Below, piece by piece: positions 524-53,454 of a stretch of 64,000 nucleotides of DNA (its first letter is position 1; each line of letters begins with the position of its first letter). The DNA is taken from assembly GCA_942491525.1 (NCBI GenBank), contig CALOBW010000055.1:136106-200105 (forward strand). Reading direction: 5' to 3'. The stretch comes from an uncultured Thermodesulfobacteriota bacterium (lineage in GTDB: Bacteria; Desulfobacterota; Desulfomonilia; UBA1062). The notes under the pieces are model-generated. The model was not told the DNA's origin. It was given only the letters and a program-made list of their open reading frames with translations, and searched no databases. The position numbers and the translations under genes are program-made.

Positions 524-1837
524 CTATAATTTGTTTGTACTCCATGATAGTAGTGGTCTCAATGATCCGCTGTATTCACCATGGTAATCACCTTTGAGTA
601 CTCCATCATCCACTGCGTCAAATGAAGCGACGTTTTCAGTGCGGAAGCCATCATTCCAATGATTAATGAAACCAGAGATGCTTATGTTGTATCTTCCTGA
701 GTTAAGTAGATTGCCTGGAATAATACAGGTTGAGTAATAGGTTCCTTTGGTCAGATTGGAACCATAGTCGGGAGATTGATTGTTGAGCGAGCTGAAAACG
801 CTGTTTCCATCCATGTCGAAGAGCATGAGTGAAAATTGAGGAGATGTTTTATTCGTAGTAACTTCGAAGGTTATACGAATGTGTAGTTCATCAGTAAGAT
901 TAAAAATTGATGATTCCTTACCCTCTTTGGTTAGTAGGGTTACTGCAGCTATATTCAATGATTCATTCCCTGGACGGTCTTGGGTCTTCCATGTTGTGGA
1001 GCTTTTTGTGCGACTTCCCAATTCCAGATAGTTATTCACCACTTTTTGTATTTTGTCATCCTGTTCTATTTCTCCGGCACTAATTAAAATGCCTCGGCTA
1101 CAGAATTTGACCACAGCTGGCATGTTATGGCTGATAAATAGGATGGTACGGCCTTCTTGAGAAGATAGTTCATTCATTTTGCCAAGGCATTTTTTTTGAA
1201 AAGCCGCGTCGCCGACGGCTAAGACCTCATCTACAAGTAGTATTTCTGACTCAAGATGGGCGGCCACGGCAAAGGCTAGACGAACATACATACCGCTTGA
1301 GTAACGTTTTACGGGTGTATCAAGAAACCGTTCGATTTCAGAGAATGCTACAATTTCATCAAACTTACGGTTGATCTCAGCCTTGCGCATTCCTAGAATA
1401 GTTCCATTGAGATAAATATTCTCGCGGCCGGTCAACTCAGGGTGAAAGCCTGTGCCAACTTCTAGGAGACTTGCCACTCGTCCATGCAATTTTACTTCGC
1501 CGGATGTCGGTTCGGTGATGCGGCTGAGTATTTTGAGTAAAGTTGATTTGCCTGCACCGTTGCGCCCGATTATACCGACTACTTCTCCGGGGTGAACCTG
1601 GCAACTGATATTTTTTAGTGCCCATATCATATCTTCGCTGGGATTCATTCCGCTCCTTGTTGAATCCTGCTCTTTTGTTGAGAACCGAGTAAGTCTACGC
1701 ATGTTATTTAAGTTTCGAATCGGGGCGGCGAGTATATCGGCCATGGCTTCTCGTAGGTTTTGGCTTGTGTGGTTAGCGGCACCAATGCGATATGCCTTAG
1801 AGATATTGTTTATCTGGATTATTGGATGGGAAGTCAT
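524..1837 (-). CDS. wzt: O-antigen/polysaccharide ABC exporter ATP-binding protein Wzt with C-terminal carbohydrate-binding extension
   Basis: Walker [18 protein letters not shown] signature [14 protein letters not shown], Walker [13 protein letters not shown]. About 180-aa C-terminal beta-rich extension beyond the NBD, as in Wzt_C domains. Confidence 0.9.
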
Positions 1838-1839
1838 TG

Positions 1840-2667
1840 TTAGATTACATCCGCTAAGTGTTTTCTTGTCTGATTGAAATATATGAGTCCGATTATAAGT
1901 AGAATTGTGCTGACAATGCCAGATGTAATTATCATTACGATAGGAAAGTCTACGGTATCGAGTAGTACTGAACGGAAACCTTCTATTATACCAGTCATGG
2001 GGTTAAGTGAATAAACAAATTTCCATTTTTCAGGTACCAGTGAAGTTGGGTAGACAATGGGACTGGCGAACATCCAAAATTGTGTCAAAAAGGGGGTGAG
2101 ATATTGGATGTCGCGGTATCTTGCATTTAATGCTGAGAGAAGTAGTCCAGTACCTGTCGCAGTAATAACCATAAGCATGATCAGTATTGGTAAAAATACT
2201 ATGAAGATAGTGGGTTGGATTTGATAATAAAGAAGCATTCCAATTCCCACTCCGAAAGCGATGATGAAATCTAGTAATCCTGCCACCACAGGGGTAATGG
2301 GGATGAGTATTCGTGGAAAATAAACTTTGGATATTAAATGACTTGATCCGATAATACTGTTGCCGGAACTAGCGATTGCGGTTGAGAAATAGGTCCAGAT
2401 AACCATAGCCGTGTAATTAAAGATCGCATACGGTACTCCATCGGAAGGGATTTTTGCTAGACGGCCTAGGAATATTGTGAAGATCATCATCATGAATAAC
2501 GGGCGGATAACTGCCCACAAAAACCCTAAGATAGTTTGTTTGTATTTGACTTTGATGTCGCGGGCCACGAGAACGTATAGAAGATCTCGATATTGGCTTA
2601 GCTCATGGAAATCAATTAGTTGTAGGCCTTTTTTTACCTTAATGTGTACGTAGGGAGTTTCGTGCAT
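1840..2667 (-). CDS. wzm: ABC-2 type polysaccharide exporter permease Wzm
   Basis: 275 aa, six predicted TM helices, ABC-2 permease-like, immediately upstream of and overlapping wzt. Confidence 0.85.
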
Positions 2668-2696
2668 AATAGTTTAAATAGATGGTGCTATTTGTG

Positions 2697-2720
2697 TATA
2701 TAGCTCCGCCATTCCGGGTG
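2697..2720. repeat. left copy of 24-bp inverted repeat (tatatagctccgccattccgggtg)
   Basis: Matches reverse complement of 5288..5311 at 23/24 positions. Located in wzm-GT4 intergenic spacer. Confidence 0.8.
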
Positions 2721-2797
2721 TATCCGGTTGGAATGAGTATTTATTGTGATCATAGCGCTGCATGGTTTCTATGTTTATCTGAATAAACGATTAAATC

Positions 2798-3913
2798 TTA
2801 AGTCATGGACGTGTATAGATCAACATATCTTTGGGCGATGGTGGTCCATGAAGTGTCACAGCTAACCTGTGTGCGTTTTTTTTCAAGCGTTGAAATCGTT
2901 ATGCGATTGTTAAGGGCATCGATGATTCTGTTGGCCAGCTCAAGGTCATTGCCTGGGGGAAACAGATAGCCGTCTGATCCATGATTGATCCAGGGGTGAT
3001 TAGCTTCGATATCGGTTACTACCGGGATTAAGCCGGCGCTTATGGCTTCCAGCAGGGCGATGGAGGTGCCGTCTTCGGTGGCCGTGGATATAAAAATTTT
3101 GGATTTGGCCATTATCTGGGCAACTTCCTCGTTGGAGACTCGCCCTCTGATTTCGATGAAATCTGAGACGTTGAGTTTGTTGACCAGCGCTCTGAGTATT
3201 TCAAGCATTGATCCATCACCAACCATCAGAAAGCGGGCATCGGGGTGTTTTTTTAAAACATGGGGAATTGATCTGATAAAGGTTGCCGGATCGTATATTT
3301 TTTCCATGCTGCGGGCATAGAGAATTATCGGTGGACGGTTGCCTGGTTCAATTGAGCTGAAGATATCGGCAGATCCTGAAGGAATTATTTCAGCATTTCT
3401 TAATGATGCAATACTCTGCATCTGTCTGGATACAATGACCAATCGGTCTGATAAATTTGTGGCAAGGCGGAAGAGAAGGCCAATGGGGCCTTTTTGTCCG
3501 ATGCGGGTGTCCATGCCGCGGGCGGTATTTATTACCGGTGTTCTTGTTATCTTGCCTACGATGCCGGCAATCAAGCCGGTTGGAACAATCCAGTGTCCAT
3601 GAATGATGTCGGGTCGTTCCTTAATTACTAGAGTTAGGGCTTTGCAGAGGCCGGTTAACATGTAGATTGACATGGCGATGATTGGCACTTTGTTTGTTTG
3701 ATTGAGCGGTTTGTCATCGCTTGGATAGCGGAATCTGTAGACTGGGATATCGTCGTCAAGTTCAAAACGGGGACTTTGACGGAAGACTTGGGGCGTCAGA
3801 ACAATGGTATCGATGCCTTGCGCTTTTAGTGCAAGGCAGAGTTTTTTTATGAAGATTCCACGATAGGATTCAGGAAAGTCGGGGTAGCCGTTTGAAATCA
3901 TAAGAACCTTCAT
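2798..3913 (-). CDS. glycosyltransferase family 4 (GT-B, retaining)
   Basis: C-terminal GT1/GT4 signature region KIFISTATEDGTSIALLEAISAGLIPVVTDI...GYLF. N-terminal Rossmann-like domain. Confidence 0.8.
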   Translation of the reverse strand: MKVLMISNGYPDFPESYRGIFIKKLCLALKAQGIDTIVLTPQVFRQSPRFELDDDIPVYRFRYPSDDKPLNQTNKVPIIAMSIYMLTGLCKALTLVIKERPDIIHGHWIVPTGLIAGIVGKITRTPVINTARGMDTRIGQKGPIGLLFRLATNLSDRLVIVSRQMQSIASLRNAEIIPSGSADIFSSIEPGNRPPIILYARSMEKIYDPATFIRSIPHVLKKHPDARFLMVGDGSMLEILRALVNKLNVSDFIEIRGRVSNEEVAQIMAKSKIFISTATEDGTSIALLEAISAGLIPVVTDIEANHPWINHGSDGYLFPPGNDLELANRIIDALNNRITISTLEKKRTQVSCDTSWTTIAQRYVDLYTSMT

Positions 3914-4046
3914 GCCAGATCTATAGCATGTAAATTGAAAGGCTGAAAGGTTACATGATCAGAATGTTATTCTATGGTTGTACTCGTTTGATTGTTGTTA
4001 TAGAGCTCATAGCAAATACGCTTATGCGCTTGAAAACGGAGGAGAT
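3914..4046. promoter_or_regulatory. divergent intergenic promoter region between GT4 (-) and wbpE-like (+)
   Basis: 133-bp AT-rich spacer between divergently oriented genes. GGAGG SD at 4037..4041 upstream of ATG 4047. No specific -35/-10 assigned. Confidence 0.3.
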
Positions 4047-5210
4047 ATGATCCCATTTATCGATCTTAAGAAACAGCAGGATCTGATTATAGATAAAATT
4101 AACGAAAATATTCAAAAGGTTCTTAGTCATGGCGGCTATATTATGGGTCCAGAGGTTACAGAACTTGAGACGCGGCTAGCTGAGTATGTGGAAGTTAAAC
4201 ATGCCATCTCGTGCTCGTCCGGTACGGATGCTCTGCTAATGGCCCTGATGGCCTACGGTGTTGGCCCGGGCGACGCAATTTTTACAACCCCCTTTACTTT
4301 TGTGGCTACGGCTGAGGTCATTGCACTGCTGGGAGCAACGCCCGTATTTGTAGATATTGATCCGAAGACCTTCAATATCGATCCTGCCCTTTTGCAAAAG
4401 GCAATTGCTGCGCTGAAAGCAAAGGATACATCGATGCATCCTTTGCCTGCCGGTTATGAGAAGTTGACACCGCGTGGGATAATTCCGGTAGACCTGTTCG
4501 GTCAGCCGGCCGATTATGATCGGATCAATGCAATTGCAGCAGAAAACGATCTTTTTGTGATCGAGGACGCCTGTCAGTCATTCGGAGCTGAATATAAGGG
4601 GCGCAAGGCCTGTTCATTGGCAGAGGCGGCTGCGACCTCATTTTTTCCAGCCAAGCCCCTAGGCTGTTATGGTGACGGCGGCATGGTCTTTACCAATGAC
4701 GATGAGTTGGCTGAGAAGATGATTTCTGTGCGTATCCACGGCAAGGGGTCTGACAAGTATGATAATATTCGCATCGGCATTAACGGCCGTCTGGATACCA
4801 TGCAGGCTGCCATTCTCTTGGCCAAGATGGATATCTTCCCGGATGAGGTTGTCAAACGTCAGGCTGTGGCAGGCAGATATTCTGAACTGTTGAAAAATGT
4901 TGTCGAGTGCCCCTATGTTGAGGATGACAACTTGAGCGCCTGGGCTCAGTATTGTGTGCTTTCCGATGACCGGGATGCGATGCAGGAAAAGTTGAAGGCA
5001 GCTGGCGTTCCTAGCGCCATCTACTATCCGATCCCGCTTCATCTACAGAGTGGTTACAGTTATCTAGCGTACAAATCTGGAGATTTTGTGGTTTCTGAAA
5101 ATGCTGCTGAGAACATTTTTGCGTTACCTATGCATCCCTATCTTGATGGGGGCGAACAACAGCAAATAGTGGAGCCCTTAGTGAGTTATGTATCCTTTGG
5201 GATGCCTTGA
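4047..5210 (+). CDS. wbpE: DegT/DnrJ/EryC1/StrS-family PLP sugar aminotransferase, WbpE/WlbC-like (UDP-2-acetamido-2-deoxy-3-oxo-glucuronate aminotransferase type)
   Basis: Start moved to ATG 4047 with GGAGG SD. MIPFIDLKKQQ...GPEVTELE...SCSSGTDAL...DIDPKTFNIDP...SFFPAKPLGCYGDGG (PLP-Lys motif). Strong WbpE-like N-terminus. Confidence 0.8.
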   Translation: MIPFIDLKKQQDLIIDKINENIQKVLSHGGYIMGPEVTELETRLAEYVEVKHAISCSSGTDALLMALMAYGVGPGDAIFTTPFTFVATAEVIALLGATPVFVDIDPKTFNIDPALLQKAIAALKAKDTSMHPLPAGYEKLTPRGIIPVDLFGQPADYDRINAIAAENDLFVIEDACQSFGAEYKGRKACSLAEAAATSFFPAKPLGCYGDGGMVFTNDDELAEKMISVRIHGKGSDKYDNIRIGINGRLDTMQAAILLAKMDIFPDEVVKRQAVAGRYSELLKNVVECPYVEDDNLSAWAQYCVLSDDRDAMQEKLKAAGVPSAIYYPIPLHLQSGYSYLAYKSGDFVVSENAAENIFALPMHPYLDGGEQQQIVEPLVSYVSFGMP

Positions 5211-5287: not shown

Positions 5288-5311
5288 CACCCGGAATGGC
5301 GGAGCTGTATA
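5288..5311. repeat. right copy of 24-bp inverted repeat
   Basis: cacccggaatggcggagctgtata is the reverse complement of the 2697..2720 repeat with 1 mismatch. Located in wbpE-wzz spacer just upstream of wzz RBS. Confidence 0.8.
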
Positions 5312-5327: not shown

Positions 5328-6278
5328 ATGATGAGTGTACAAAAAGCACATGAAGTTTATGAAGATGAAATCGATCTGGTAGAAATCGTTGCTGTCTTGT
5401 GGCGTCGCAAATGGCTGATTCTGTCAGTTGCGGTTATTGTATCTCTTGCTTGCGCGCTTCATTCGTTTTCAAAAGAGAAGCTTTATACGGTATCAGCAAC
5501 TGTTATGCCTAACAGTTTGAGCTATGATGAAAGTGGCGACCCTCAATATGTTGATGATGTTAAGAATTTTAAGGCGAAGATTAATGGTGGCTGTTATTGG
5601 GATGAATTAAAGAGCAAGTCATCGGATGGTTGGTTGCCGTCATTTAGCGTCAATGTGAATGAGGTTGCTCGGGAAATAGTGATATCTTCTAATGTGGTCA
5701 AAGAGAGGGTTGATCAGACAAAGATTTTATTGGGTGATCTTAGTCGTTTGGTTAACCGTGATTATGAGAACCGTGTTTTGATTCAGCTGCAAGCTATAGA
5801 GCTTGAACAGGAAAAGTTGGCCATGCTGCTTAAGGAGGAACAAAATATTGTTGCAGAGATGAAAGCTGTCTCGTTAAGTATGTCTGAGCTGGTTGAACGG
5901 CGTGATAACTTTATTAAACAGAATCCATCTGCTTCTGACAGCACAGCCTTGCTTTATGCTACCGCAATCCAGCAGGATAGAGGTTATTTGAATCAGCTTA
6001 GCAATCAGTTGAAATCGGTCCGGGCGCAATTGCTGCTTAATAAGTTTAAATTTCAGAAGATGAAGCTGGCAAATGATTCTGGTGATGGTCAACAGATTGT
6101 GGCGTTGGTTACCATTCATGAACCGGCTGCGACAACCAGTCCGATTTCTCAGCATGGAAAACGTAATGTGTTGCTTTCGTTGATTGTCGGGTTGATTTTG
6201 GGTGTCTTTGTGGCATTTGTGGTGCAGTTTGCCGAGATTGTGCGGCATAGAAAAAGGAACTTTTCTAATCATAATTGA
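5328..6278 (+). CDS. wzz: polysaccharide chain-length determinant (Wzz/PCP-like) protein
   Basis: N-terminal TM after LVEIVAVLWRRKWLIL, long coiled-coil periplasmic region, second TM near C-terminus (LLSLIVGLILGVFVAFVV). Confidence 0.65.
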   Translation: MMSVQKAHEVYEDEIDLVEIVAVLWRRKWLILSVAVIVSLACALHSFSKEKLYTVSATVMPNSLSYDESGDPQYVDDVKNFKAKINGGCYWDELKSKSSDGWLPSFSVNVNEVAREIVISSNVVKERVDQTKILLGDLSRLVNRDYENRVLIQLQAIELEQEKLAMLLKEEQNIVAEMKAVSLSMSELVERRDNFIKQNPSASDSTALLYATAIQQDRGYLNQLSNQLKSVRAQLLLNKFKFQKMKLANDSGDGQQIVALVTIHEPAATTSPISQHGKRNVLLSLIVGLILGVFVAFVVQFAEIVRHRKRNFSNHN

Positions 6279-6287: not shown

Positions 6288-7298
6288 GTGAATATCTCGG
6301 GAAAAAATGTTTTGGTTACAGGTGCAGATGGCTTCATCGGGTCTCATTTGACAGAAACTCTTGTGCGGCAAGGTTATGATGTTCGTGCGTTTGTGATGTA
6401 TAATTCTTTTAATTCTTGGGGATGGTTGGATCAGGCTGATTCTGAAGTGCAGAAAAATATGGATGTATTTGCTGGTGACATCAGAGATCCCCATGGAGTG
6501 CGTCAGGCCATGCAGGGTTGTGATATTGTAATGCATCTGGCTGCCCTGATTGCTATCCCATATTCATATCACTCTCCTGACACCTATGTGGATACAAATG
6601 TTAAGGGCACATTGAATGTTGTGCAGGCTGCTCGTGATTTGGGCGTCGAAAAAGTGGTACATACATCTACTAGCGAAGTGTATGGCACGGCTAGATTTGT
6701 GCCGATTACAGAGGAACATCCCCTGCAGGGGCAGTCGCCGTACTCGGCATCCAAGATTGGCGCAGATCAGATGGCATTGTCTTTTTATCAGTCATTTGAT
6801 ACGCCTGTGGCAGTGATTCGTCCATTCAATACTTACGGCCCCAGGCAGTCTGCTCGGGCTGTTATTCCTACAATTATTGGGCAGATCGCTAATGGTAAGC
6901 GAAAGATCAAGTTGGGATCGTTGCATCCGACCCGAGACTTTAATTATGTCAAGGATACTGTTAGGGGATTTTTAGCAGTTGCCGAGGCTGATTCTTCTGT
7001 TGGTGAAGTGATTAATATCGGTAGTAACTATGAGATTTCTATCGGTGATACCGTTGAGCTGATATCAGAGGTGATGGGGGTTAATATTGAAATTGAAACT
7101 GATGATCAGCGTCTGCGACCTGAAAAGAGTGAAGTTGAACGTCTCTGGGCTGACAATGCCAAAGCTAAAGAGTTGGTTGGTTGGGCTCCTGAATATGGTG
7201 AGCGTGATGGTTTTAAACGAGGATTAGCTGAAACGGTAGAGTGGTTTACCAATTCGGATAATTTGAAACAGTATAAAACTTCAATTTATAATATTTAA
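6288..7298 (+). CDS. NAD-dependent NDP-sugar 4,6-dehydratase, LegB-like (nonulosonate pathway)
   Basis: VLVTGADGFIGSHL Rossmann motif, YSASK catalytic motif, YNSFNSWGWLD segment typical of the LegB-like dehydratase subgroup. Confidence 0.7.
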   Translation: MNISGKNVLVTGADGFIGSHLTETLVRQGYDVRAFVMYNSFNSWGWLDQADSEVQKNMDVFAGDIRDPHGVRQAMQGCDIVMHLAALIAIPYSYHSPDTYVDTNVKGTLNVVQAARDLGVEKVVHTSTSEVYGTARFVPITEEHPLQGQSPYSASKIGADQMALSFYQSFDTPVAVIRPFNTYGPRQSARAVIPTIIGQIANGKRKIKLGSLHPTRDFNYVKDTVRGFLAVAEADSSVGEVINIGSNYEISIGDTVELISEVMGVNIEIETDDQRLRPEKSEVERLWADNAKAKELVGWAPEYGERDGFKRGLAETVEWFTNSDNLKQYKTSIYNI

Positions 7299-7314
7299 AA
7301 GTAAGTTAATTGGA

Positions 7315-8469
7315 ATGAACGAAAAATTTAGAAAGATAGTCAGCTGTATTCGGGAGCAATATAACTGTCCTGATGAATTTATTCCACTGCATGCGCCAGT
7401 ATTTAATGGGAATGAGAAAAAATATCTGATTGACTGTATTGATTCAACGTTTGTTTCTAGCGTTGGTAAGTTTGTTGATCGGTTTGAGGAGATGGTTGCT
7501 GACTATACCGGTGCTGAATATGCAATTGCCACTGTAAATGGTACCGCTGCATTGCATATAGCATTACTTTTGGTTGGAGTTGAACCGGAAGATGAAGTGC
7601 TAACTCAGGCTCTTACTTTTGTAGCAACTCCCAATGCAGTCAGTTATTGTGGAGCAACTCCTGTTTTCCTTGATAGTGATCGAATGACTTTAGGGTTGAG
7701 TCCGGAAGCTTTACGTACTTTTTTATCTGAAAATGCTGAAAAGCGTGCTGATGAATATACTTATAACCGAAAGTCGGGGAAACGGATCAAGGCTTGTGTT
7801 CCAATGCATGTGTTTGGCCATCCTGTCAGGGTTCTTGAACTGAAATCTATCTGTGATAGTTATAATATTACGCTAGTTGAGGATGCCGCGGAGTCATTAG
7901 GTAGTTTTTATGGTGAGCAACATACAGGAACCTTTGGTAAGTTAGGTGTTCTAAGTTTTAATGGTAATAAGACTCTTACTACCGGCGGTGGTGGGATGAT
8001 TCTTACTAATGATGAAAAGTTGGCCCGGCAGGCAAAACATTTGACCACTACTGCTAAACAGCCTCATGCCTGGGAGTATGTTCATGATCAGGTTGGTTAT
8101 AACTATCGGCTTCCCAATCTGAATGCAGCTTTGGGTTGTGCTCAGATGGAACAGTTGGATACTTTTCTTGAATATAAGCGTCATCTGGCCGGTAATTATT
8201 GGCAATGCTTTGATGTATTGGGTGTGAAGTTTATTTCCGTTCCGGATGGATGTATTTCAAATTATTGGTTGAATGCGATTGTTTTGGAAGATCGAAATGA
8301 ACGCGATAAGTTTCTTGAATACTCTAATGCCAATGGTGTTATGACAAGACCATTGTGGATGCTGGCATCATCTCTTAAGATGTATCATGAGTGTGAAACG
8401 GATGGGCTTGATAATGCAAGGTGGTTTGAGGAGAGAGTTGTTAATATTCCGAGTGGTGTAATGGTATGA
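7315..8469 (+). CDS. DegT-family aminotransferase, LegC/PseC-like
   Basis: DegT fold with LSFNGNKTLTTGGGG PLP-Lys motif. Adjacent to the dehydratase and NeuD-like acetyltransferase. Confidence 0.8.
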   Translation: MNEKFRKIVSCIREQYNCPDEFIPLHAPVFNGNEKKYLIDCIDSTFVSSVGKFVDRFEEMVADYTGAEYAIATVNGTAALHIALLLVGVEPEDEVLTQALTFVATPNAVSYCGATPVFLDSDRMTLGLSPEALRTFLSENAEKRADEYTYNRKSGKRIKACVPMHVFGHPVRVLELKSICDSYNITLVEDAAESLGSFYGEQHTGTFGKLGVLSFNGNKTLTTGGGGMILTNDEKLARQAKHLTTTAKQPHAWEYVHDQVGYNYRLPNLNAALGCAQMEQLDTFLEYKRHLAGNYWQCFDVLGVKFISVPDGCISNYWLNAIVLEDRNERDKFLEYSNANGVMTRPLWMLASSLKMYHECETDGLDNARWFEERVVNIPSGVMV

Positions 8470-9080
8470 AGCCCGAGATTATTCTTATTGGTGGCGGTGG
8501 CCACTGTAAATCTTGCATTGATGTTATTGAGCAGCAAGATAAATTTAAGATATCTGGTATTGTTGATGTGAAGGATAAATTGCACCGAAGATTATTAGGT
8601 TATGAAATAATTGCTACTGATGATGACTTACCTGCACTTGTTAAAGAATATAGAAATTTTCATATTGCTATTGGACAGATCAAAGATCCAGCCCCCAGAA
8701 TTAAGTTGTTTCAAATTTTAAAGAGATTATCTGTTAATATTCCAGAAATTATATCACCCAAGGCTCATGTTTCACCCCATGCCATAGTTGGGGAAGGATC
8801 AATAATAATGCATCATGCGCTTGTTAATGCAGGTGCAAAGATCGGCAATAATTGTATCGTAAATACAAAGACTTTAATTGAGCATGATGCTACTATTGAA
8901 GATTATTGTCATGTTGCTACGGCGGCGGTGATAAATGGCGGATGCAGTATCGGCAAGGGGGCCTTTATAGGCAGTAATGTTGTTTGCCGAGAATCAATAT
9001 CTATCGGAGAGTTTTCTGTTGTTGGATGTGGAGTTAAGTTGGTTGAAAATGTAGATTCATATTCGTTGGTTGTGAAGTAG
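8466..9080 (+). CDS. NeuD/PglD-family hexapeptide-repeat sugar N-acetyltransferase (LegH-like)
   Basis: MKPEIILIGGGGHCKSCIDVI N-terminal NeuD-type domain followed by left-handed beta-helix hexapeptide repeats. Confidence 0.75.
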   Translation: MKPEIILIGGGGHCKSCIDVIEQQDKFKISGIVDVKDKLHRRLLGYEIIATDDDLPALVKEYRNFHIAIGQIKDPAPRIKLFQILKRLSVNIPEIISPKAHVSPHAIVGEGSIIMHHALVNAGAKIGNNCIVNTKTLIEHDATIEDYCHVATAAVINGGCSIGKGAFIGSNVVCRESISIGEFSVVGCGVKLVENVDSYSLVVK

Positions 9081-9116
9081 TTATTTGACTTATCGAATAT
9101 TGATTTTGTTGATTAA

Positions 9117-12889: not shown

Positions 12890-12903
12890 TAGGGAGATTT
12901 TAA

Positions 12904-14100: not shown

Positions 14101-14108
14101 AGGACGAA

Positions 14109-17167: not shown

Positions 17168-17175
17168 GAATTGAA

Positions 17176-18102: not shown

Positions 18103-18108
18103 TAGCTA

Positions 18109-20496: not shown

Positions 20497-20508
20497 GAAA
20501 TATTATTT

Positions 20509-23260: not shown

Positions 23261-23328
23261 TGAAATTTGAAATATCTACCATTTAGTAATCAAATTGTTT
23301 TAGTGTCAGATGTAAGGATATCTTAGTA

Positions 23329-25873: not shown

Positions 25874-25918
25874 ATGTAGGTTTCGATTGTGCGTTTGAGT
25901 AAATGAATTGGAGATCAA

Positions 25919-28928: not shown

Positions 28929-28934
28929 TGTAGT

Positions 28935-30815: not shown

Positions 30816-30838
30816 ATTCTTATTCGGGAGATTCTGTC

Positions 30839-31828: not shown

Positions 31829-31840
31829 GATGATTTAAAT

Positions 31841-32983: not shown

Positions 32984-32988
32984 ATGAT

Positions 32989-35100: not shown

Positions 35101-35132
35101 AGTTGTGATGATGTCATTCCTGGGATTAATTT

Positions 35133-40080: not shown

Positions 40081-40081
40081 T

Positions 40082-44786: not shown

Positions 44787-44801
44787 TGTCTGAGGGCTGA
44801 G

Positions 44802-46259: not shown

Positions 46260-46267
46260 GGGTGTAA

Positions 46268-47506
46268 GTGATTAGATTGAAAAGCCAACAGGATCTGAAG
46301 AGCGGTGTTATGCAGGCACTGATCTTTATGAATTTACCTTTTTTGATGTTTATGATTGTGGCCATGATGTTTCAGCTTGTTAGACTAGAGACATATGATT
46401 CCGTCAAAATGGTTGTTCAGTTGCTCTCTTGTGGTGGGATATTGGTTCTACTTGCTATGAGTCTTGGTGATATTTACAAGAATTGGCAGTTCTTTTCATA
46501 TTTCTATGTGTTTGTTTTGATGTTGATATGGTTGTCCATTGTGACCCTGGTTCATTCTGCTGTACAAAGTGGCTCAGTCTTGCGGTTGAATTTGTATGTA
46601 ATCTATCTGTATATTGTTTATTTTATAGTTGGTTGTGGGGTTCTGAGCGAGAGAAGTCGAGCTTTAGATTTGCTGGCTGGTGGGCTGTGGATTGTAGCTG
46701 CTTTCTTGATTTGTCAGCATGTCGATTGGAGTAACCTTCGTATTAATATGTCACTGGTCAGAATTGATGCGCGGGCCATACATCTATATCTGGGAGATAT
46801 GTTTGCTGTTGTTTCTCTTTACTTGATCTGTTCACGAGACCGATTTTGGCAGCGATATCTGTTGTGGGTTGCTGCTGTTGTGATGGTATTCATAATTGGC
46901 TCTCGTACATCTTTTTATGCCCTGGTGGCTGTCTTGCCGCTGACAATTGTTTTCGGGCGGGATTGGAAGGCTTTCGCAGGATTTGCCTTGACGTTGGCTG
47001 TTGTTGGTGTGCTGGGGATGGTATTTCTTGGCGATGATTACCTCAAGAGTCATCGGATGCTCTCGTTTGTCTTTACCGGTTCAGATCATAACTTTGCAGC
47101 GAGGGGGGATTATTTTGTTGAAGGTATGCGCCAGCTGTGGAGTAACTGGTTCTGGGGTGATTATGCAGGTCAGCTACATCAAGGACGAGGTATTGGCTTT
47201 TATATTCATAATTACTTTTCAATTTGGCGTCAGTTTGGACTGATTCCCTTTGTGCTGTTTTTGTACATGGTTGGAGTATCTTTGAGAATAATTGCCGAAG
47301 GTATTAGAACATTCAATGATGGTCGTTTTAAACTGTTTGTCCTGTTAATGGCTTTTTGTTTGATTGAGGTGGCCTTTTCAAGGGCATATATGTTTCCGTT
47401 TATATTTATACCGCTGGGAATGGGTGGGCGTTTTTTGATTGAGAAGTACAGAGATGATTCTGTGAGTGGGGGAGCCGTTGCAGCGGATACTTTATCTGAC
47501 GTTTAA
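46268..47506 (+). CDS. polytopic membrane protein, O-antigen polymerase (Wzy)/ligase-like candidate
   Basis: 412 aa, 10-11 TM helices with a larger loop near residues 270-320 (FFWGDYAGQLHQGRGIGFYIHNYF), Wzy-like organisation. No strong family motif. Confidence 0.5.
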   Translation: MIRLKSQQDLKSGVMQALIFMNLPFLMFMIVAMMFQLVRLETYDSVKMVVQLLSCGGILVLLAMSLGDIYKNWQFFSYFYVFVLMLIWLSIVTLVHSAVQSGSVLRLNLYVIYLYIVYFIVGCGVLSERSRALDLLAGGLWIVAAFLICQHVDWSNLRINMSLVRIDARAIHLYLGDMFAVVSLYLICSRDRFWQRYLLWVAAVVMVFIIGSRTSFYALVAVLPLTIVFGRDWKAFAGFALTLAVVGVLGMVFLGDDYLKSHRMLSFVFTGSDHNFAARGDYFVEGMRQLWSNWFWGDYAGQLHQGRGIGFYIHNYFSIWRQFGLIPFVLFLYMVGVSLRIIAEGIRTFNDGRFKLFVLLMAFCLIEVAFSRAYMFPFIFIPLGMGGRFLIEKYRDDSVSGGAVAADTLSDV

Positions 47507-48677
47507 TGATCCATATGCCTCGCCCGGTGTTAACCGTAAGGAACGGGAGTTCTGTGCGCGCATGGGCAGTGTCTGTGCTGAGCATGGCATTGAATTTAAG
47601 GGTGTTGATGTATTTACTCCTGAGTATTCCAATGGCAAGTCGCGTCAGGATTCTGAGTTCTTTGAACATCATGAGGTGACCAATTGGTTGCACAGGATTT
47701 TTATGCATGTGCGTTTTGTGAGGGCGCTTTTCAGGGTTCGACCACTGGTTGATGCCGCCTATAGGTTGATTGATGAGTATGATCCGGATGTTTTGATCTG
47801 GCGTTATGACATTATTAATCTGCCGGGAGTTTTCTATCCCAAGAGATATAAAAGGGATCTGGTGCTGATTAGCGAACATCAGACAAAGGAGCCGGAGGAG
47901 TTGGCCCTTAATCTGATCGGCCGGATTAAGATGCCGCTTTTGCGTCGTTATGAGCAGCAGTTTGCCCAGACAGTGGATGCGGTTGTGGGTGTGACGTCTG
48001 AGATTGCAACCTATGAAGTTGAACGCTTCAGGCCGGATTTGCCGAGTCATGTTCATACCAATGGCATCAATGTGGCGAGCTGTAAGGTTGCGGATTATTC
48101 TGATTTTGACGGCAAAGTGTTGCGTATTATCTTTGTGGGCTCGGCCACTGCGCCGTGGCATGGAGTGGATCGCCTGCTGCAGGGGCTGGCTGGTTACAGT
48201 GGAGATGTTAGGGTTGAGTTGCACATGGTCGGTGTTGCGACAGACGAGACAGTTGCTTTGGTGGATTCGCTCGGGCTCAATGATATGGTCGTCTATCATG
48301 GGGTTCAGTATGGCGCGGATCTGGATGCAATTTTTAATCAGGCCCATCTCGCTGTAGGTGCCCTGGGTTTGCATCGTCAGAACCTTAAGTATGGTTCTAC
48401 CCTTAAGGTCAGAGAGTATATGGCGCGCGGCGTACCCATTGTGATTTCGCATATTGATGAGGATATTGCTCAGGACTTCCCGCTGTGCCATATTGCGCCG
48501 GCGGATGAGTCGCCCCTCGATATAGAGCGTCTTGTGGAGTTTGCCCGGTCCGCCTATTCAGATGTTGGTGCGGCGATTCCGCAAATTATGCACCGCTATG
48601 CTTCAGAAAATATGGACTATGAGGGCAAGGCCAGCCGTCTGCTGGATTTTGTCAAAGAGGTCGTGGGAGAGAGCTGA
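47466..48677 (+). CDS. glycosyltransferase family 4 (GT-B); intermediate-GC gene at the compositional junction
   Basis: GT4 C-terminal STLKVREYMARGVPIVISH region. Start uncertain (ATG 47466 overlaps upstream gene by 41 nt). The antisense 361-aa ORF over the same DNA was judged a shadow ORF. Confidence 0.7.
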   Translation: MGEPLQRILYLTFNDPYASPGVNRKEREFCARMGSVCAEHGIEFKGVDVFTPEYSNGKSRQDSEFFEHHEVTNWLHRIFMHVRFVRALFRVRPLVDAAYRLIDEYDPDVLIWRYDIINLPGVFYPKRYKRDLVLISEHQTKEPEELALNLIGRIKMPLLRRYEQQFAQTVDAVVGVTSEIATYEVERFRPDLPSHVHTNGINVASCKVADYSDFDGKVLRIIFVGSATAPWHGVDRLLQGLAGYSGDVRVELHMVGVATDETVALVDSLGLNDMVVYHGVQYGADLDAIFNQAHLAVGALGLHRQNLKYGSTLKVREYMARGVPIVISHIDEDIAQDFPLCHIAPADESPLDIERLVEFARSAYSDVGAAIPQIMHRYASENMDYEGKASRLLDFVKEVVGES

Positions 48678-48680
48678 GTC

Positions 48681-49514
48681 ATGCTTTTTGTCGTTGTGCT
48701 CTATACTGATGATCTTGGTTCCTGTACGACGATCGCATCGTTGGGTAGACTTGCCTTCACGCGTCAGATTCATCTCCACTTTCAGATAAACGGCACCCGA
48801 GATTTTAGTTCCGAGTTGCATGAGTTGTTTGATGCTGATTATGGCCGGGTGAGCTGTGCATATGATGGCTGCAATCGGGGGATTGTGCATGCCTATCGCG
48901 AAGCCGTCCGCATATATGGCGGTGGCAGTGAGTGGGTTACCCTGCTGGATCAGGACAGTGATTTTGATGTAACCTGGCTTGATACGCTCAATGCCGGTTT
49001 GTCAAATATGCAGCCGGATGATGTGGCCCTGGTGCCTCGTATCGTCTCATCTGGTGCGCAGATCTCACCATTCAGGCTGAGTCTGGGTAGGGTGATCCCT
49101 TTTGATAGCGATGGCGGCTTTCCGGTCTGCATCAACTCCTTGACCACCTTCCGGGCGGGCTATCTGCAGAAGCTGGCTGACGACTTTCCGGTCAGCTTCT
49201 TCCTGGACGCCTTCGATGTCTGGCTGTTTCATCGGATGCATAAGGCTGGGCTAAGTTTCAAGCTGCTGGATGTAACGGTCAAGCATGAGCTCTCCCTGAG
49301 CAGTGGTGCAGTCAGTGAAACCATGCTGGCGCGCGAGTTGATGTCACTGATTAATATGACTCGGATTTCCCTGACGCTTATGCCCATGAGTCTGCTGCGT
49401 TTTATATTTAGGCAGCTAAAGCTGGCAGCGCGTATGCGCAGCCTGCGGCCCTTTAATTTGATTGCAACTTATAGAAGATACAGATATCTGATTAAGGATA
49501 TTGGAGCAGCATGA
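48681..49514 (+). CDS. GT2-like (rhamnosyltransferase-like) protein, divergent
   Basis: MLFVVVLYTDD, LLDQDSDF acidic motif. Weak GT-A resemblance only. Confidence 0.45.
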   Translation: MLFVVVLYTDDLGSCTTIASLGRLAFTRQIHLHFQINGTRDFSSELHELFDADYGRVSCAYDGCNRGIVHAYREAVRIYGGGSEWVTLLDQDSDFDVTWLDTLNAGLSNMQPDDVALVPRIVSSGAQISPFRLSLGRVIPFDSDGGFPVCINSLTTFRAGYLQKLADDFPVSFFLDAFDVWLFHRMHKAGLSFKLLDVTVKHELSLSSGAVSETMLARELMSLINMTRISLTLMPMSLLRFIFRQLKLAARMRSLRPFNLIATYRRYRYLIKDIGAA

Positions 49515-50501
49515 ATGGATATCTCAATAATAATTGTTAATTACAACACGCGGGATGATCTGCGCAACGCACTGGCTTCCATCCGTACGGCCGGCAACAA
49601 CCTTGATGTGCAGACCATCGTGGTCGATAATCAGTCCAAAGATGGCTCGCTCGAGATGATTAGGTCCGAGTTTTCTGAGGTGACTCTGATCGCCAACCAG
49701 GACAACAAAGGCTTTGCTGCGGCCAACAATCAGGGTATTGAAATCGCAAGCGGGCGCTACGTCCTGTTGCTTAATCCCGACACCATTCTCTATGAAGACA
49801 CTCTCGATAAATGCGCTGCATATATGGAGCAGCATCAGGATATCGGCTGCCTGGGCATCAAGTCTCTGACCCGCTCGGGCAATGTCTTTCCCAACGGCAA
49901 CTCATTTCCGTCCGAGATCAAGACGCTGGCGCGTCTGCTGATGCTGCGCGAGATTTTGCCCAACAAGCTGATTCGCAAATATCTGGCGCCGGTGGCCGGC
50001 AAACTGGCCACGACCTATGCGGACCGTGAAGTTGAACAGGATGTCGACATGGTGGGCGGCTTCTACCTCTTCATGCGCGGCGCAGCCGTCAAACAGGTTG
50101 GCATGCTCGAGGAGGCCTACTGGGCCGACATTGAGGACAGCGACTACTGCGCGCGCCTCTGGCGGGCCGGCTGGCGGGTGGTCTACTGGCCCGGGGCAAG
50201 CATGGTCCATCTGATTGGTGCCAGCATTGAGCGCAGACTCTATTCGCTTAATACGGTACTCAGGGTCAATGAGAATACCATGCTTTTCTTTAAGCGACAC
50301 TATGCACCGTGGAGGCTGACGGCCCTGCGTTTGATCTATATTTTGAGTGCACCGGTCCAGACGGTCATGGCCTGCATTTTGCCCGTCTGCATGGGGCGCG
50401 AGAAGGCCCAGGTGGGCGAACGCATTCGCGGCGCCTGGGGGCTTGCCGGGAAAGCTTTATTCCTTCCGTCTAAGGTGCGCAGTGCAGAGGTGATGAGATG
50501 A
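49515..50501 (+). CDS. glycosyltransferase family 2
   Basis: ISIIIVNYNTRDDL...VVDNQSKDGS...LLLNPDT classic GT2 N-terminal motifs. Confidence 0.8.
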   Translation: MDISIIIVNYNTRDDLRNALASIRTAGNNLDVQTIVVDNQSKDGSLEMIRSEFSEVTLIANQDNKGFAAANNQGIEIASGRYVLLLNPDTILYEDTLDKCAAYMEQHQDIGCLGIKSLTRSGNVFPNGNSFPSEIKTLARLLMLREILPNKLIRKYLAPVAGKLATTYADREVEQDVDMVGGFYLFMRGAAVKQVGMLEEAYWADIEDSDYCARLWRAGWRVVYWPGASMVHLIGASIERRLYSLNTVLRVNENTMLFFKRHYAPWRLTALRLIYILSAPVQTVMACILPVCMGREKAQVGERIRGAWGLAGKALFLPSKVRSAEVMR

Positions 50502-51067
50502 AAGAGCTGATATGGGGGGACATGACCCGCTACTACGGGCATGAACCTTCGCTTAAAGAGCAAATTATTTACTGGATACATCCTAGGACTCAGGCAACGG
50601 CGACCTACAGGTTGTCGCAGTGGTGCAGCCGCAACGGGTTGAGCCCCATTGCCAAGGTGATCGAACTTGTGAATATGATCCTCTGGAGCTGTGAGCTCTC
50701 CCCCAAGATGGAGATCGGCAAGGGGCTCCTGATTGAACACACCATCGGCGTCGGCATGGCCTTTTATAAGGCCGGTGAAAATCTCAGCGTCAATATGGGC
50801 GTGGTGATTGCCGGTGCCGGCCATGATCCGGAGTTTGATGTTACCAAGCGGCCCAGCTTCGGCGATGATGTGACCATCAATATTGGCGCCAAAGTTTTCG
50901 GCGGGATCACGATCGGGGATAATGTCATTATCGGTGCCAATGCGGTTGTGAACCGTAGTGTGCCTTCAAACTGTGTGGTTGCCGGCGTGCCGGGTCGCAT
51001 CATCAGGCATCTGCCCGGCTATGTGGCGCCGGCCGATCCCGAGAACTACTGCAAGGATGTTACGTGA
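50498..51067 (+). CDS. hexapeptide-repeat O-acetyltransferase, serine acetyltransferase-like (WcaB/CysE family)
   Basis: YRLSQWCSRNG... N-terminal helix region then LbH repeats (IGDNVIIGANAVV). Confidence 0.7.
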   Translation: MKELIWGDMTRYYGHEPSLKEQIIYWIHPRTQATATYRLSQWCSRNGLSPIAKVIELVNMILWSCELSPKMEIGKGLLIEHTIGVGMAFYKAGENLSVNMGVVIAGAGHDPEFDVTKRPSFGDDVTINIGAKVFGGITIGDNVIIGANAVVNRSVPSNCVVAGVPGRIIRHLPGYVAPADPENYCKDVT

Positions 51068-51969
51068 AAGTCTCGCTGATCATTCCCACCCTGAACGCGG
51101 CGAGCTATCTGGCTGATCTGCTTGGCAAGCTGAATGACCAGAGTCGGCCGGCCGACGAGATCATCATTATCGACTCTGAGTCCGATGATGCCACGGCCGC
51201 TATCGCCCGGCAGCATGGCGCGACTGTCATCAACCAGCCCCGCGAAACCTTCAACCATGGCGGCACCCGCAACCGGGCCGCGGAAGCGTCCGGCGGCGAT
51301 ATCCTGATTTTTCTGACTCAGGATGTGATTCCGGCTGACAGTGACCTGATCGCCAATCTGATCGCGCCATTTAATGATCAGAGTGTGGCGGCGGCCTATG
51401 GCCGCCAGATCGCCTTCAGCACGGCGCGGCCCAGCGAGAAGTATGTGCGCACCTTCAACTATCCGGCCGTCTCGCGCATCAAGAGCAAGTCAGATCTGCC
51501 GGCCCTGGGCGTCAAGACCTTCTTCTGCAGCAATGCCTGCGCTGCCTACCGCCGCTCTGTGCATGAAGAGCTGGGCGGTTTTCGCAGTGATACCATCATG
51601 AATGAGGATATGGAGTTCGCCTACCGCCTGATCATGCATGACCAGCGAATCGCCTACACGGCCGGCGCGGTCGTTGAGCACTCCCACGACTACAGCTTCA
51701 TGCAGCAGCTGGGGCGCTACGTCGATATCGGCGTCTTCTTTCGGGATAATCCAGAGCTGGCGGCCTGCGCCGGTAATGAGGGCGAGGGGCTGCGCTACAT
51801 TCTGAACGCCGTCAGACATCTGATCTCCATTGGCGAGTATCTGGAGATCGTGCACCTCATCACCGACGCCGGGGCGCGCTTCATCGGCTACCGCCTGGGC
51901 TACCGTTACAAATCAATTCCCACATCCATTATCCGCCGCTTCTCCATGCATAGGGGCTACTGGGCCTAG
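51064..51969 (+). CDS. glycosyltransferase family 2
   Basis: VSLIIPTLNAASYL...IIIIDSESDD...LTQDVIP GT2 motifs. Confidence 0.8.
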   Translation: MKVSLIIPTLNAASYLADLLGKLNDQSRPADEIIIIDSESDDATAAIARQHGATVINQPRETFNHGGTRNRAAEASGGDILIFLTQDVIPADSDLIANLIAPFNDQSVAAAYGRQIAFSTARPSEKYVRTFNYPAVSRIKSKSDLPALGVKTFFCSNACAAYRRSVHEELGGFRSDTIMNEDMEFAYRLIMHDQRIAYTAGAVVEHSHDYSFMQQLGRYVDIGVFFRDNPELAACAGNEGEGLRYILNAVRHLISIGEYLEIVHLITDAGARFIGYRLGYRYKSIPTSIIRRFSMHRGYWA

Positions 51970-52032
51970 ATTCGGCCGACTGGACAGGCGCCTGATCATA
52001 TTGTATAGAGCCATCACTAAGGGGTAAGGGAT

Positions 52033-53454
52033 ATGAAAAATGTCAATCTGGCCATGAAGTGGCTCGTAATGGTGATCGGTCTGATTCTGGCCGATGTCTT
52101 CGCGCTTGTCATTAGCTTTTTGCTGGCCTATTGGTTCAGGGCCGACTTTCTGGTCGAGGCGCTGCCCCTTTTCGGGTCCATTCAGCACTCTCTGCAGATC
52201 TACGCCGAATCCTGGCCGATTCTGCTGCTCTGGCCCCTGATGTTTCTCTATGAGGGTATCTATCCCTCGGTGGGTATGAACTTCTGGGAGGAGAACAAAT
52301 CGCTGGTCAAGGGCAACCTGATCGCCTTCATCTTTGTGATCCTGCTGACCTTCATCACCCGCCGCTCCTTCCACTACTCGCGTTTCGTCATTGCGCTGGG
52401 CTTCATGATTTCGCTCTTTGCCCTGCCGCTGGCCAGAATTCTGGCGCGCAAACTTCTGCGGCTGCTGGGCGTCTGGCGCCGCGACATCGTGCTGGTGGGC
52501 AGCGCCGCCGGCGTTGGCCAGGTTATGAATAATCTGAATAAGCATCCGGACTGGGGTTTCAATGCCCTGGGCGCCGTGCTGCCGGCCGGCGAAAGTTTGG
52601 CGCTGCCGGTCTTGGGCGAGCTGGAGCATCTGGAAAATGTCAAGGTGCGCTGCAGTGAGGTGATCGTGGCCATGCCCGGCATCTCCTCCAAAGAGCTCTC
52701 CATGATCGTGGAGAAGGCCGCCACGATTGCGCCGGTGGTCAAGGTTTTGCCCGATCTCTACGGGCTGGCCTCGGCCGGGGTGCGCACCCATGATCTGGAC
52801 GGCATGCTGCTGCTGGAGGTTGAAGACCGCCTGGCGCTGCGCAAGAACATCATCACCAAGCGCTTCTTTGACGTGGTCTGCGCGGTGATCGGTCTGATCC
52901 TGCTTTCACCCTTCTTCCTGATTACTGCCATGCTGGTGCGCCTGAGCTCCAGGGGGCCAGTCTTCTTCGGCCATACCCGGGTCGGGCAGGGCGGCAAGCC
53001 CTTCAAATGCTACAAGTTCCGCACCATGGTGGCCAATGCCCAGGAGGTGCTTGAGGAGCTGCTGGCGAACGACCCCGAGGCCCGCGCCCAGTGGGAGGCC
53101 GAGTTCAAGCTCAAGAACGATCCGCGCATCACCCGGATCGGCGGCTTCCTGCGCAAGACCTCGCTGGATGAGTTTCCGCAGCTCTGGAACGTCATCCGCG
53201 GCGACATGTCGCTGGTGGGGCCGCGGCCGATCGTCTCCGACGAGGTCGATCTCTACGGCGACAAGGCGCGCTACTTCTTCAAGGTCACCCCGGGCATCAC
53301 CGGCCTCTGGCAGGTTTCGGGCCGTAACGACATCGATTATGATGAGCGCGTCATGCTGGATGAGTACTATGCCAAGAACTGGTCGCTCTGGCTCGATATC
53401 GAGATTCTGATCCGCACCTTCGGTGTGGTGCTTAATCGCTCCGGAGCCTATTAG
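52033..53454 (+). CDS. wbaP: undecaprenyl-phosphate hexose-1-phosphate transferase (WbaP/bacterial sugar transferase family; polyprenyl glycosylphosphotransferase)
   Basis: Five N-terminal TM helices. C-terminal catalytic domain with KFRTM and EFPQLWNVIRGDMSLVGPRP motifs. Confidence 0.85.
   Translation: MKNVNLAMKWLVMVIGLILADVFALVISFLLAYWFRADFLVEALPLFGSIQHSLQIYAESWPILLLWPLMFLYEGIYPSVGMNFWEENKSLVKGNLIAFIFVILLTFITRRSFHYSRFVIALGFMISLFALPLARILARKLLRLLGVWRRDIVLVGSAAGVGQVMNNLNKHPDWGFNALGAVLPAGESLALPVLGELEHLENVKVRCSEVIVAMPGISSKELSMIVEKAATIAPVVKVLPDLYGLASAGVRTHDLDGMLLLEVEDRLALRKNIITKRFFDVVCAVIGLILLSPFFLITAMLVRLSSRGPVFFGHTRVGQGGKPFKCYKFRTMVANAQEVLEELLANDPEARAQWEAEFKLKNDPRITRIGGFLRKTSLDEFPQLWNVIRGDMSLVGPRPIVSDEVDLYGDKARYFFKVTPGITGLWQVSGRNDIDYDERVMLDEYYAKNWSLWLDIEILIRTFGVVLNRSGAY

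Follow-up and report, generated by a model that had tools for sequence, protein, structure and literature searches.

That a single organism may assemble its surface polysaccharides by several routes, even side by side, is already textbook knowledge for Pseudomonas, Klebsiella/Escherichia coli and Myxococcus. In Pseudomonas aeruginosa the clusters for the common polysaccharide antigen (CPA) and the O-specific antigen (OSA) lie far apart; in the cps-rfb region of Klebsiella and of E. coli O8/O9:K30 type, a Wzy-dependent cluster adjoins a Wzm/Wzt cluster for an O-polysaccharide (O-PS). As to priming, one WbpL serves both the CPA, which depends on an ATP-binding cassette (ABC) transporter, and the Wzy-dependent OSA of P. 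aeruginosa (PMC6804347), WecA primes the ABC-dependent O-PS of Klebsiella (PMC6856556), and in Myxococcus xanthus a WbaP-type polyprenyl-phosphate hexose-1-phosphate transferase (PHPT) initiates the Wzm/Wzt-exported O antigen of lipopolysaccharide (LPS), besides which there are separate Wzx/Wzy polysaccharides (PMC7484181). Here, we analyzed a surface-glycan locus of an uncultured Thermodesulfobacteriota bacterium, contained in a stretch of 64,000 nucleotides (assembly GCA_942491525.1, contig CALOBW010000055.1, positions 136,106 to 200,105; the window). What is particular to this locus is its density: in an uncultured lineage, about 67 kb accommodate one ABC line, two lines of the Wzx/Wzy type and an Arn-like cassette, all grouped around conserved anchors.

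The locus resembles P. aeruginosa in that genes for ABC- and Wzy-dependent O-PSs occur in one organism, together with an AsnB-type amidotransferase, and in that its first Wzy-dependent cluster, like the OSA cluster, begins with wzz and ends with wbpK-wbpL-wbpM. It differs in that the clusters are placed back to back, in that wbpM is succeeded by a third unit, of the Wzx/Wzy type and initiated by WbaP, and in its deltaproteobacterium-like host. With the cps-rfb region it shares a WbaP/WcaJ-initiated Wzy cluster next to a Wzm/Wzt cluster for which a WecA-type enzyme is the predicted primer, but here the WecA-type gene is inside the locus, there are two Wzx/Wzy units instead of one, and the Wza-Wzb-Wzc set of the enteric loci is absent from the window. 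M. xanthus is likewise a deltaproteobacterium with a Wzm/Wzt O antigen and separate Wzx/Wzy polysaccharides, although its eps locus and O-antigen genes are treated as separate pathways; the likeness is drawn from pathway descriptions.

Most of a hot spot for surface glycans, which is located upstream of tadA and exceeds 67 kb, falls within the window. Families were assigned with the curated score cutoffs of Pfam and NCBIfam (scores are in bits, and "a vs. b" gives score versus cutoff), so that chance is not an issue for gene content. None of the 55 credible open reading frames (ORFs) of the window contained an internal stop, and those of the locus were tightly spaced and on the same strand within blocks, in the following layout.

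3913 leftwards past the window edge, minus strand: module 1, the ABC line (a family 4 glycosyltransferase [GT4], Wzm, Wzt and at least six more genes)
5328-41092, plus strand: module 2, Wzx/Wzy line 1, defined by gene content from Wzz to WbpL (36 kb)
41159-43084, plus strand: WbpM/PglF-type membrane 4,6-dehydratase, which joins modules 2 and 3 as a conserved hinge (Polysacc_synt_2, 401 bits)
43206-53454, plus strand: module 3, Wzx/Wzy line 2, defined by gene content and ending in WbaP
59402-59962, plus strand: tadA and tRNA-Ser(cga), housekeeping genes that bound the locus on the right

We consider it fairly probable that these modules are three self-contained lines which would build three different undecaprenyl-linked polysaccharides in parallel, because each is equipped with an exporter or flippase, three or more glycosyltransferases (GTs) and sugar-modifying enzymes of its own, the Wzx proteins are unrelated to each other at the BLAST level, and modules occur separately in relatives. 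A first-pass annotation had listed the initiating, export and polymerization genes of the window; all of them were found where it had placed them (genes are named below by their start coordinates) and matched Pfam or NCBIfam models, in the case of 46268 through its relatives. It had missed a small EamA-type ORF (18109-18501), two GT-C proteins (21314-23260 and 56014-57381) and the continuation of the ABC module past base 1. Its premise that ABC and Wzx/Wzy routes are normally alternatives is true for a given glycan but not for an organism (PMC6804347), and the type of initiator neither counts glycans nor assigns routes (PMC6804347, PMC7484181).

The genes of the ABC line in the window, and the gene at its junction with the Wzz-led module, were as follows.

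1-523, minus strand: 5' part of the gene for a 468-amino-acid (aa) GT4 of the ABC module, the frame opening MQTIKML...
524-1837, minus strand: Wzt, an ABC ATPase with a C-terminal carbohydrate-binding domain (ABC_tran, 83.5 bits; Wzt_C, 44.2 vs. 30.4)
1840-2667, minus strand: Wzm, an ABC-2 permease (ABC2_membrane, 70.2 bits)
2798-3913, minus strand: GT4, the first visible gene of the ABC module (Glycos_transf_1, 92.3 bits)
3978-5210, plus strand: DegT-family sugar aminotransferase at the junction (DegT_DnrJ_EryC1, 366 bits)

The exporter genes were adjacent. The Wzt_C domain, an end recognition domain of the O9a type, spanned residues 286 to 389 of Wzt, and the best NCBIfam matches of Wzm were the KpsM and Wzm models, both below cutoff. 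The module extended at least 7.7 kb past the left edge of the window on a contig of run ERR9670067 (L003) that is 100% identical to window positions 1 to 4757. Beyond the window this contig encodes the 468-aa GT4, a 439-aa ORF, an epimerase, an AsnB-type amidotransferase, a second epimerase and a 405-aa GT, so that the GTs of the block are the GT4 at 2798-3913, the 468-aa GT4 and the 405-aa GT. In the 12.4 kb of the block visible in the window and L003, beyond which the cluster continues, no chain terminator (WbdD-like kinase or methyltransferase) was recognized; the 439-aa ORF matched no family. We propose that the GT4 enzymes of this line would complete its chain before it leaves the cytoplasm, after which the carbohydrate-binding domain of Wzt would recognize the chain end and Wzm/Wzt would export the polymer. 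The primer would probably be WbpL, by analogy with the WbpL of P. aeruginosa and the WecA of Klebsiella, although WbaP could also serve, as in M. xanthus.

Module 2 contains a complete set of candidate genes for a Wzx/Wzy line.

5328-6278, plus strand: Wzz, a chain-length regulator of polysaccharide copolymerase (PCP) class 1, 316 aa (Wzz, 49.1 vs. 25.5)
23329-24612, plus strand: putative GT, 427 aa (weak matches: BFO_1060 GT domain, E 3.6e-6; Glyphos_transf, E 0.016)
24593-25873, plus strand: Wzx-1, a MOP flippase (Polysacc_synt, 53.8 vs. 28.2; 11 transmembrane [TM] segments)
25919 and 26904, plus strand: two methyltransferases, by gene content, between Wzx-1 and 27717
27717-28928, plus strand: Wzy_C-domain protein 1 (Wzy_C, 64.2 vs. 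31.7; 9 TM)
28935-40080, plus strand: remaining module 2 genes, encoding an AsnB-type amidotransferase, a methyltransferase, a GT4, an alcohol dehydrogenase (ADH)-GFO fusion, a heparinase II/III-like protein, a WecB 2-epimerase, a GT4 and a WbpK-like reductase
40082-41092, plus strand: WbpL/WecA-type polyprenyl-phosphate HexNAc-1-phosphate transferase (Glycos_transf_4, 103 bits)

Wzz had one TM segment near each terminus (residues 20 and 281). Protein 24593, which had been annotated as a second Wzx-like protein, was assigned to the MOP flippases by hidden Markov model (HMM) and is not an unrelated transporter. The ATG of wbpL lay one base past the stop of wbpK, and its product scored only 70.7 bits on the WecA model (cutoff, 326), indicating that it is WbpL-like and not a WecA equivalog. 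WbpL would start the repeat unit of this line, which would contain a legionaminic-acid-type sugar, Wzx 24593 would flip it and the Wzy_C protein 27717 would polymerize it under chain-length control by Wzz, while a cassette embedded in the module, described below, would decorate the glycan in the periplasm. Protein 27717 could be a polymerase or a ligase, the Wzy_C domain being common to Wzy, WaaL and PglL. No match to Poly_export (outer membrane polysaccharide export [OPX] proteins, Wza) or to Wzc-type proteins (PCP-2a tyrosine kinases) was found among the 55 ORFs, which cover the window only; with Wzz present and Wza and Wzc missing there, LPS-linked O-PSs are the most likely products.

The second Wzx/Wzy line follows the hinge.

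43206-44786, plus strand: fusion of a GFO/IDH/MocA dehydrogenase and a hexapeptide acetyltransferase (WbpB-WbpD-like), 526 aa (Pfam)
44802-46259, plus strand: Wzx-2, a MOP flippase (Polysacc_synt_3, 60.6 vs. 23), 44% identical to the Wzx of contig L088
46268-47506, plus strand: Wzy_C-superfamily protein 2 (10 TM; no direct Pfam match even at E<5)
47466-51969, plus strand: GT4, a 277-aa family 2 GT (GT2)-like protein, GT2, hexapeptide acetyltransferase and GT2, kept at 44 to 71% identity in L007, L011, L021 and L088
52033-53454, plus strand: WbaP-type PHPT (TIGR03022, 507.8 vs. 403)

Protein 46268, previously described as Wzy/ligase-like, was placed through its family: a word-index search gave two homologues and an exhaustive HMMER search 633 relatives, and Wzy_C was matched by 77 of 101 aligned relatives, which makes an unrelated transporter of it no longer tenable. 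The family aligned to the Wzy_C region of 27717 with an hhalign probability of 75%, and the two proteins are, by this comparison, only remotely related. Since, in addition, Wzx-1 and the clear Wzx at 44802 had no similarity detectable at the BLAST level, the two sets are not duplicates; the modules look substrate-specific, and the term "redundant" that had been applied to this machinery does not fit. The position of 46268 adjoining Wzx was kept in L088 to L090, and this protein is likely to be the polymerase of module 3, although polymerases, ligases and PglL-type transferases look alike at the level of sequence available here and both 27717 and 46268 are, by their domain, WaaL candidates as well. 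In this line WbaP would start the unit, Wzx 44802 would flip it and 46268 would polymerize it, and O-acyl groups would be added by the MBOAT and Acyl_transf_3 enzymes encoded downstream. Homologues of the 43206-44786 fusion, 51 to 55% identical, were seen near WbpM in L113, L125, L138 and L149.

We compared the locus with related contigs. The closest relatives of WbaP were 57 to 66% identical and came nearly all from metagenome-assembled genomes (MAGs) labelled Deltaproteobacteria, Thermodesulfobacteriota or Syntrophaceae, in which a recurring order was WbpM, two polytopic proteins with GTs, WbaP, sometimes MBOAT, a GT-C homologue and TadA. WbpM homologues were found at the equivalent position (57 to 66% identity), and WbpL homologues (51 to 55%) adjoined WbpK and WbpM in L092 and L096 to L098. 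With WbpM as the pivot, further arrangements were present in metagenomes: GT4-WbpK-WbpL-WbpM (L096 and L097), the same block continued directly by GT-C-TadA and lacking the WbaP block (L098), WbpK-WbpL-WbpM with genes for a Wzy-like protein, a membrane protein and GT4 enzymes downstream (L092), and a small PglC-like transferase, DegT and WbpM followed by GT-C-TadA (L095). The order WbpM-[Wzx, Wzy, GTs]-WbaP was found in L010, L012, L023, L093 and L088 to L090; GT-C-TadA came after the WbaP block in the first four, and the contigs L088 to L090 ended at or before WbaP. The latter three also harbored the nearest homologue of 46268 (37%), in a block WbpM-Wzy-Wzx-...-GT4-GT2-GT2-hexapeptide-GT2-WbaP. 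WbpK-WbpL-WbpM and GT-C-tadA are thus, judging from gene order, conserved anchors, around which WbpL-ended upstream and WbaP-ended downstream modules come and go independently. WbpM, at first counted as part of the upstream block on the model of Pseudomonas, was reassigned after the synteny comparison as a hinge common to both blocks. The first-pass annotation had left the choice between parallel glycans and a chimeric pathway open; as relatives have the WbpL-ended block, the WbaP-ended block or both, parallel glycans are favored and a single chimeric pathway is the less supported of its two proposals.

Variation within the sample itself was less informative. Three contigs of run ERR9670067, 100% identical to the window, ended or overlapped by 19 to 29 nt at 4739-4757 (L003 and L001; the 3' end of the DegT gene, a module border), at 41434-41462 (L001 and L087; the 5' part of wbpM, a module border) and at 50833, in the hexapeptide acetyltransferase gene. 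The breaks may reflect strain-level variation of cassettes; since the third lies inside module 3, they are weak support for the modules.

Several observations weigh against three independent lines. The visible part of the ABC block contains no initiating transferase, so that its primer must come from elsewhere, either from another block or from beyond the window. The Wzm/Wzt block was found in no relative's flank, and its independence therefore rests on gene content. Module 3 has no aminotransferase of its own, even though it carries the dehydrogenase-acetyltransferase fusion, which makes precursor supply across modules possible. Protein 27717 could be WaaL or a PglL-type transferase, in which case module 2 would lack an identified Wzy, and some blocks could be silent. 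Finally, an element common to the ABC and Wzz-led lines hints at coupling between them.

2697-2720, minus strand: first copy of a 24-nt motif, CACCCGGAATGGCGGAGCTATATA, 30 nt upstream of the wzm ATG
5288-5311, plus strand: second copy, 17 nt upstream of the wzz ATG

The two copies, with the consensus CACCCGGAATGGCGGAGCT(A/G)TATA, were oriented alike relative to wzm and wzz, and none was expected in the window from shuffles. There was no copy elsewhere in 2.24 Mb of fetched related loci and no matching Rfam family. The motif may be a shared regulatory leader of the ABC and Wzz-led operons. The known ops/JUMPstart element, GGCGGTAG, was considered and rejected: its three matches were all antisense within a GT2 gene and not above chance.

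A tentative possibility, which we do not favor, is that the lines are wired together, the 24-nt element being a shared control site (e.g., for a NusG/RfaH-type antiterminator) that would coregulate ABC- and Wzy-dependent O-PSs primed by one WbpL, and that the nine-gene cassette of 21314 and the ArnT-like GT-C on the tadA side would be undescribed periplasmic decoration systems.

Each of three other explanations is less well supported than parallel synthesis. In the first, the pathway would be chimeric or interdependent: the ABC polymer and the first Wzy polymer would have WbpL as their common primer, precursors would be shared and 27717 would be a common ligase, resulting in fewer than three distinct products or in covalently combined ones. 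Such a pathway would account for the missing initiator of the ABC block, for the identical motif ahead of wzm and wzz and for the missing aminotransferase of module 3, and it has precedents in the shared WbpL of P. aeruginosa and in the combination of WbaP with Wzm/Wzt in M. xanthus. However, the glycans of P. aeruginosa stay separate despite their common initiator, no block here shares its flippase or exporter or its GTs with another, and the WbpL-ended and WbaP-ended blocks are found apart in relatives, and we therefore consider a chimeric pathway unlikely.

PglL and PilO also carry a Wzy_C domain. It could consequently be argued that one set of Wzx and Wzy_C proteins serves general protein O-glycosylation, 27717 or 46268 being an oligosaccharyltransferase of the PglL/PilO type that would move a short glycan from undecaprenyl pyrophosphate to proteins; no Wzz adjoins module 3, and the WbpM/PglF-type dehydratase with the PglC/D/E-like genes that neighbor WbpM in L012 and L095 resembles pgl loci. 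Set against this are the Wzz of module 2, which implies polymerization, the four GTs and several O-acylation genes of module 3, which are typical of a repeat-unit polysaccharide, and the domain itself, which does not distinguish PglL from Wzy or WaaL here, and we regard this explanation as quite improbable.

The remaining explanation starts from base composition. The G+C content was 35 to 47% until about 48 kb and 51 to 60% thereafter, and the G+C content at third codon positions (GC3) changed along the locus from 0.27-0.41 over 0.42-0.57 to 0.77-0.87, a split that had been read as native versus acquired. WbaP, the ArnT-like GT-C and tadA are native as proposed, but the low-GC WbpK-WbpL-WbpM genes are lineage-conserved anchors too, and WbpK and WbpL were low in GC3 also in relatives, so that low GC marks the type of locus and not a recent import. 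That one block (e.g., the low-GC Wzz-to-WbpL or the ABC block) is a recent, silent or vanishing passenger, leaving one or two glycans, is equally improbable. It is favored by the strong GC contrast (35 to 45% versus 58 to 60%) and by the absence of the Wzm/Wzt block from relatives' flanks. Against it, low GC is a property of the locus type, none of the 55 ORFs is disrupted, so that the pseudogenization which the first-pass annotation had named as a refuting outcome was not observed, and a repeat search detected neither insertion sequence (IS) elements nor long repeats where the modules meet.

If parallel synthesis is correct, the locus would be an example, in an uncultured lineage of Desulfobacterota type, of surface diversity generated from interchangeable modules around the WbpK-WbpL-WbpM and GT-C-tadA anchors. 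It would be useful for the annotation of MAGs, where such loci often read as a single O-antigen cluster, would help to predict variation in phage receptors and serotypes, and would flag a widespread GT-C family that has no Pfam model and belongs to a conserved cassette of the Arn type. The locus poses no challenge to present models of polysaccharide assembly; the more unusual by-products of the analysis are the 24-nt motif of the wzm and wzz leaders and this Pfam-less GT-C family.

The cassette and its most telling members were the following.

14884-23260, plus strand: Arn-like periplasmic decoration cassette in module 2 (WbqC, GT2, hexapeptide acyltransferase, a glycoside hydrolase [GH] 130/43-like protein, EamA, methyltransferase, WecE-type aminotransferase, methyltransferase and GT-C)
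15570-16511, plus strand: PgfS/ArnC-like GT2, candidate polyprenyl-phosphate sugar synthase (Glycos_transf_2, 92 bits; C-terminal TM helices)
18109-18501, plus strand: EamA-type ORF, 130 aa, four TM (EamA, 31.3 vs. 28.2; weaker SMR match)
19360-20496, plus strand: WecE-type 4-aminotransferase (596 bits vs. 375)
21314-23260, plus strand: GT-C, 648 aa, 12 TM, without a Pfam model

The GT2 would make an undecaprenyl phosphate-linked aminosugar, the EamA protein would flip it and GT-C 21314 would transfer it. The best NCBIfam matches of the GT2 were PgfS (183 bits) and ArnC (110 bits), both below cutoff. The EamA ORF, which fills an apparent gap of 395 bp (18103-18497), is a candidate ArnE/F- or GtrA-like flippase for the undecaprenyl phosphate-linked sugar, and an EamA gene was present at the equivalent position of the cassette in L171. 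There, the nine genes recurred at 48 to 62% identity in the order WbqC, GT2, methyltransferase, hexapeptide acyltransferase, GH-like, EamA, methyltransferase, DegT and GT-C. Like the Arn (ArnB/C/E/F/T) and Gtr (GtrA/B/C) systems, the window has a DegT aminotransferase, a GT2 with C-terminal TM helices, a small EamA/SMR-type protein and a GT-C; unlike them, its GT-C has no Pfam model, its aminotransferase is of the WecE type (dTDP-4-amino-4,6-dideoxyhexose), and two methyltransferases, WbqC and a GH130/43-like protein are added, which are conserved within the cassette. The AlphaFold (AF2) model of 21314 (pLDDT 92) matched AftA, DPY19 and ArnT in Foldseek (AftA, probability 1.0 and TM score of about 0.4; ArnT, probability 0.99). 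Having been tried as an additional Wzy/WaaL candidate, this protein was rejected because the fold search identified a GT-C-A enzyme. Its family comprised at least 126 word-index relatives, and members occurred outside polysaccharide loci as one of three genes standing by themselves, the others encoding a methyltransferase and a DegT protein (L086), alone (L084, Pseudomonas hormoni) and as two tandem paralogues with a DegT gene (L172).

Six S-adenosylmethionine (SAM)-dependent methyltransferase genes were located within 13 kb of module 2 (18498-31828), at 18498, 20509, 25919, 26904 and 30839 plus one in the cassette, a number that suggests a heavily methylated glycan. The ADH-GFO gene of this module (32989-35100) encodes a 703-aa fusion of a zinc-ADH domain and a GFO/IDH/MocA dehydrogenase.

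Between wzz and the cassette lies the presumed source of the legionaminic-acid-type sugar of module 2.

6288-14858, plus strand: legionaminic-acid-type nonulosonic acid pathway (Pfam and NCBIfam matches)

Its genes encode LegB, LegC, a NeuD/PglB-type acetyltransferase, a weak GT2, a NeuB-family synthase, a CBS-nucleotidyltransferase, a PtmA-like short-chain dehydrogenase/reductase (SDR), an aminotransferase and a CMP-sugar synthetase. The LegB dehydratase (553.9 vs. 475) and the LegC aminotransferase (551.5 vs. 420) passed equivalog cutoffs, the acetyltransferase matched NeuD_NnaD (182.5 vs. 160.8), and the synthase scored under both the NeuB and the PseI cutoffs. No hydrolyzing 2-epimerase of the NeuC/LegG type was matched in 6288-14858; the only 2-epimerase, at 36783, is of the WecB type (WecB, 300; NeuC, 74). 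The block therefore resembles the LegB/C/H/I/F plus PtmE/PtmA pathway of Campylobacter and Legionella in LegB, LegC and the NeuD-type, NeuB-family, CBS-nucleotidyltransferase, PtmA-like and CMP-sugar synthetase genes and differs from it in lacking a recognizable NeuC/LegG and in the low score of its synthase. The 291-aa ORF at 9117-9992, where NeuC/LegG would be looked for, had just a weak GT2 match.

Module 3 is followed by acylation genes and a second GT-C.

53464-55978, plus strand: MBOAT O-acyltransferase and 345-aa signal-anchored partner (MBOAT, 125 bits), a pair kept in L007, L011 and L021
56014-57381, plus strand: ArnT-like GT-C adjoining the tadA region, homologues of which carry PMT_2 or PMT
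57353-59409, plus strand: two Acyl_transf_3 membrane O-acyltransferases (84.6 and 93 bits)

The AF2 model of 56014 (pLDDT 78) matched ArnT structures with an E value of 3e-6 and TM scores of 0.61 to 0.63, and the domains of its homologues together with this GT-C-A fold led us to reject it as a Wzy or WaaL. An ArnT-like GT-C was encoded just upstream of tadA in every related locus (L004 to L024, L093, L095 and L098), whatever polysaccharide modules were present; L014 had two copies, and L017 and L024 had a matching second hit. Sequence searches of the PDB found no match for 21314, 27717, 46268 or 56014. Permissive Pfam scans of the unclassified window ORFs gave nothing useful, and a scan for sigma-70 promoters and terminators, in which promoter-like sites were fewer than in shuffles, was uninformative for the host lineage.

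The right flank consists of tadA, tRNA-Ser, an M48 peptidase gene, a second tRNA-Ser and one further RNA gene.

62368-62466, plus strand: bacterial small signal recognition particle (SRP) RNA (61.6 bits), adjoining tRNA-Ser(gga)

The SRP RNA, beside tRNA-Ser(gga), confirms that the flank belongs to the core genome. Directly 3' of tRNA-Ser(cga), in surroundings of 58 to 60% G+C, we found an orphan ORF of 260 aa (60066-60848, plus strand) with 39% G+C and no family, which may be a small insertion at the tRNA.

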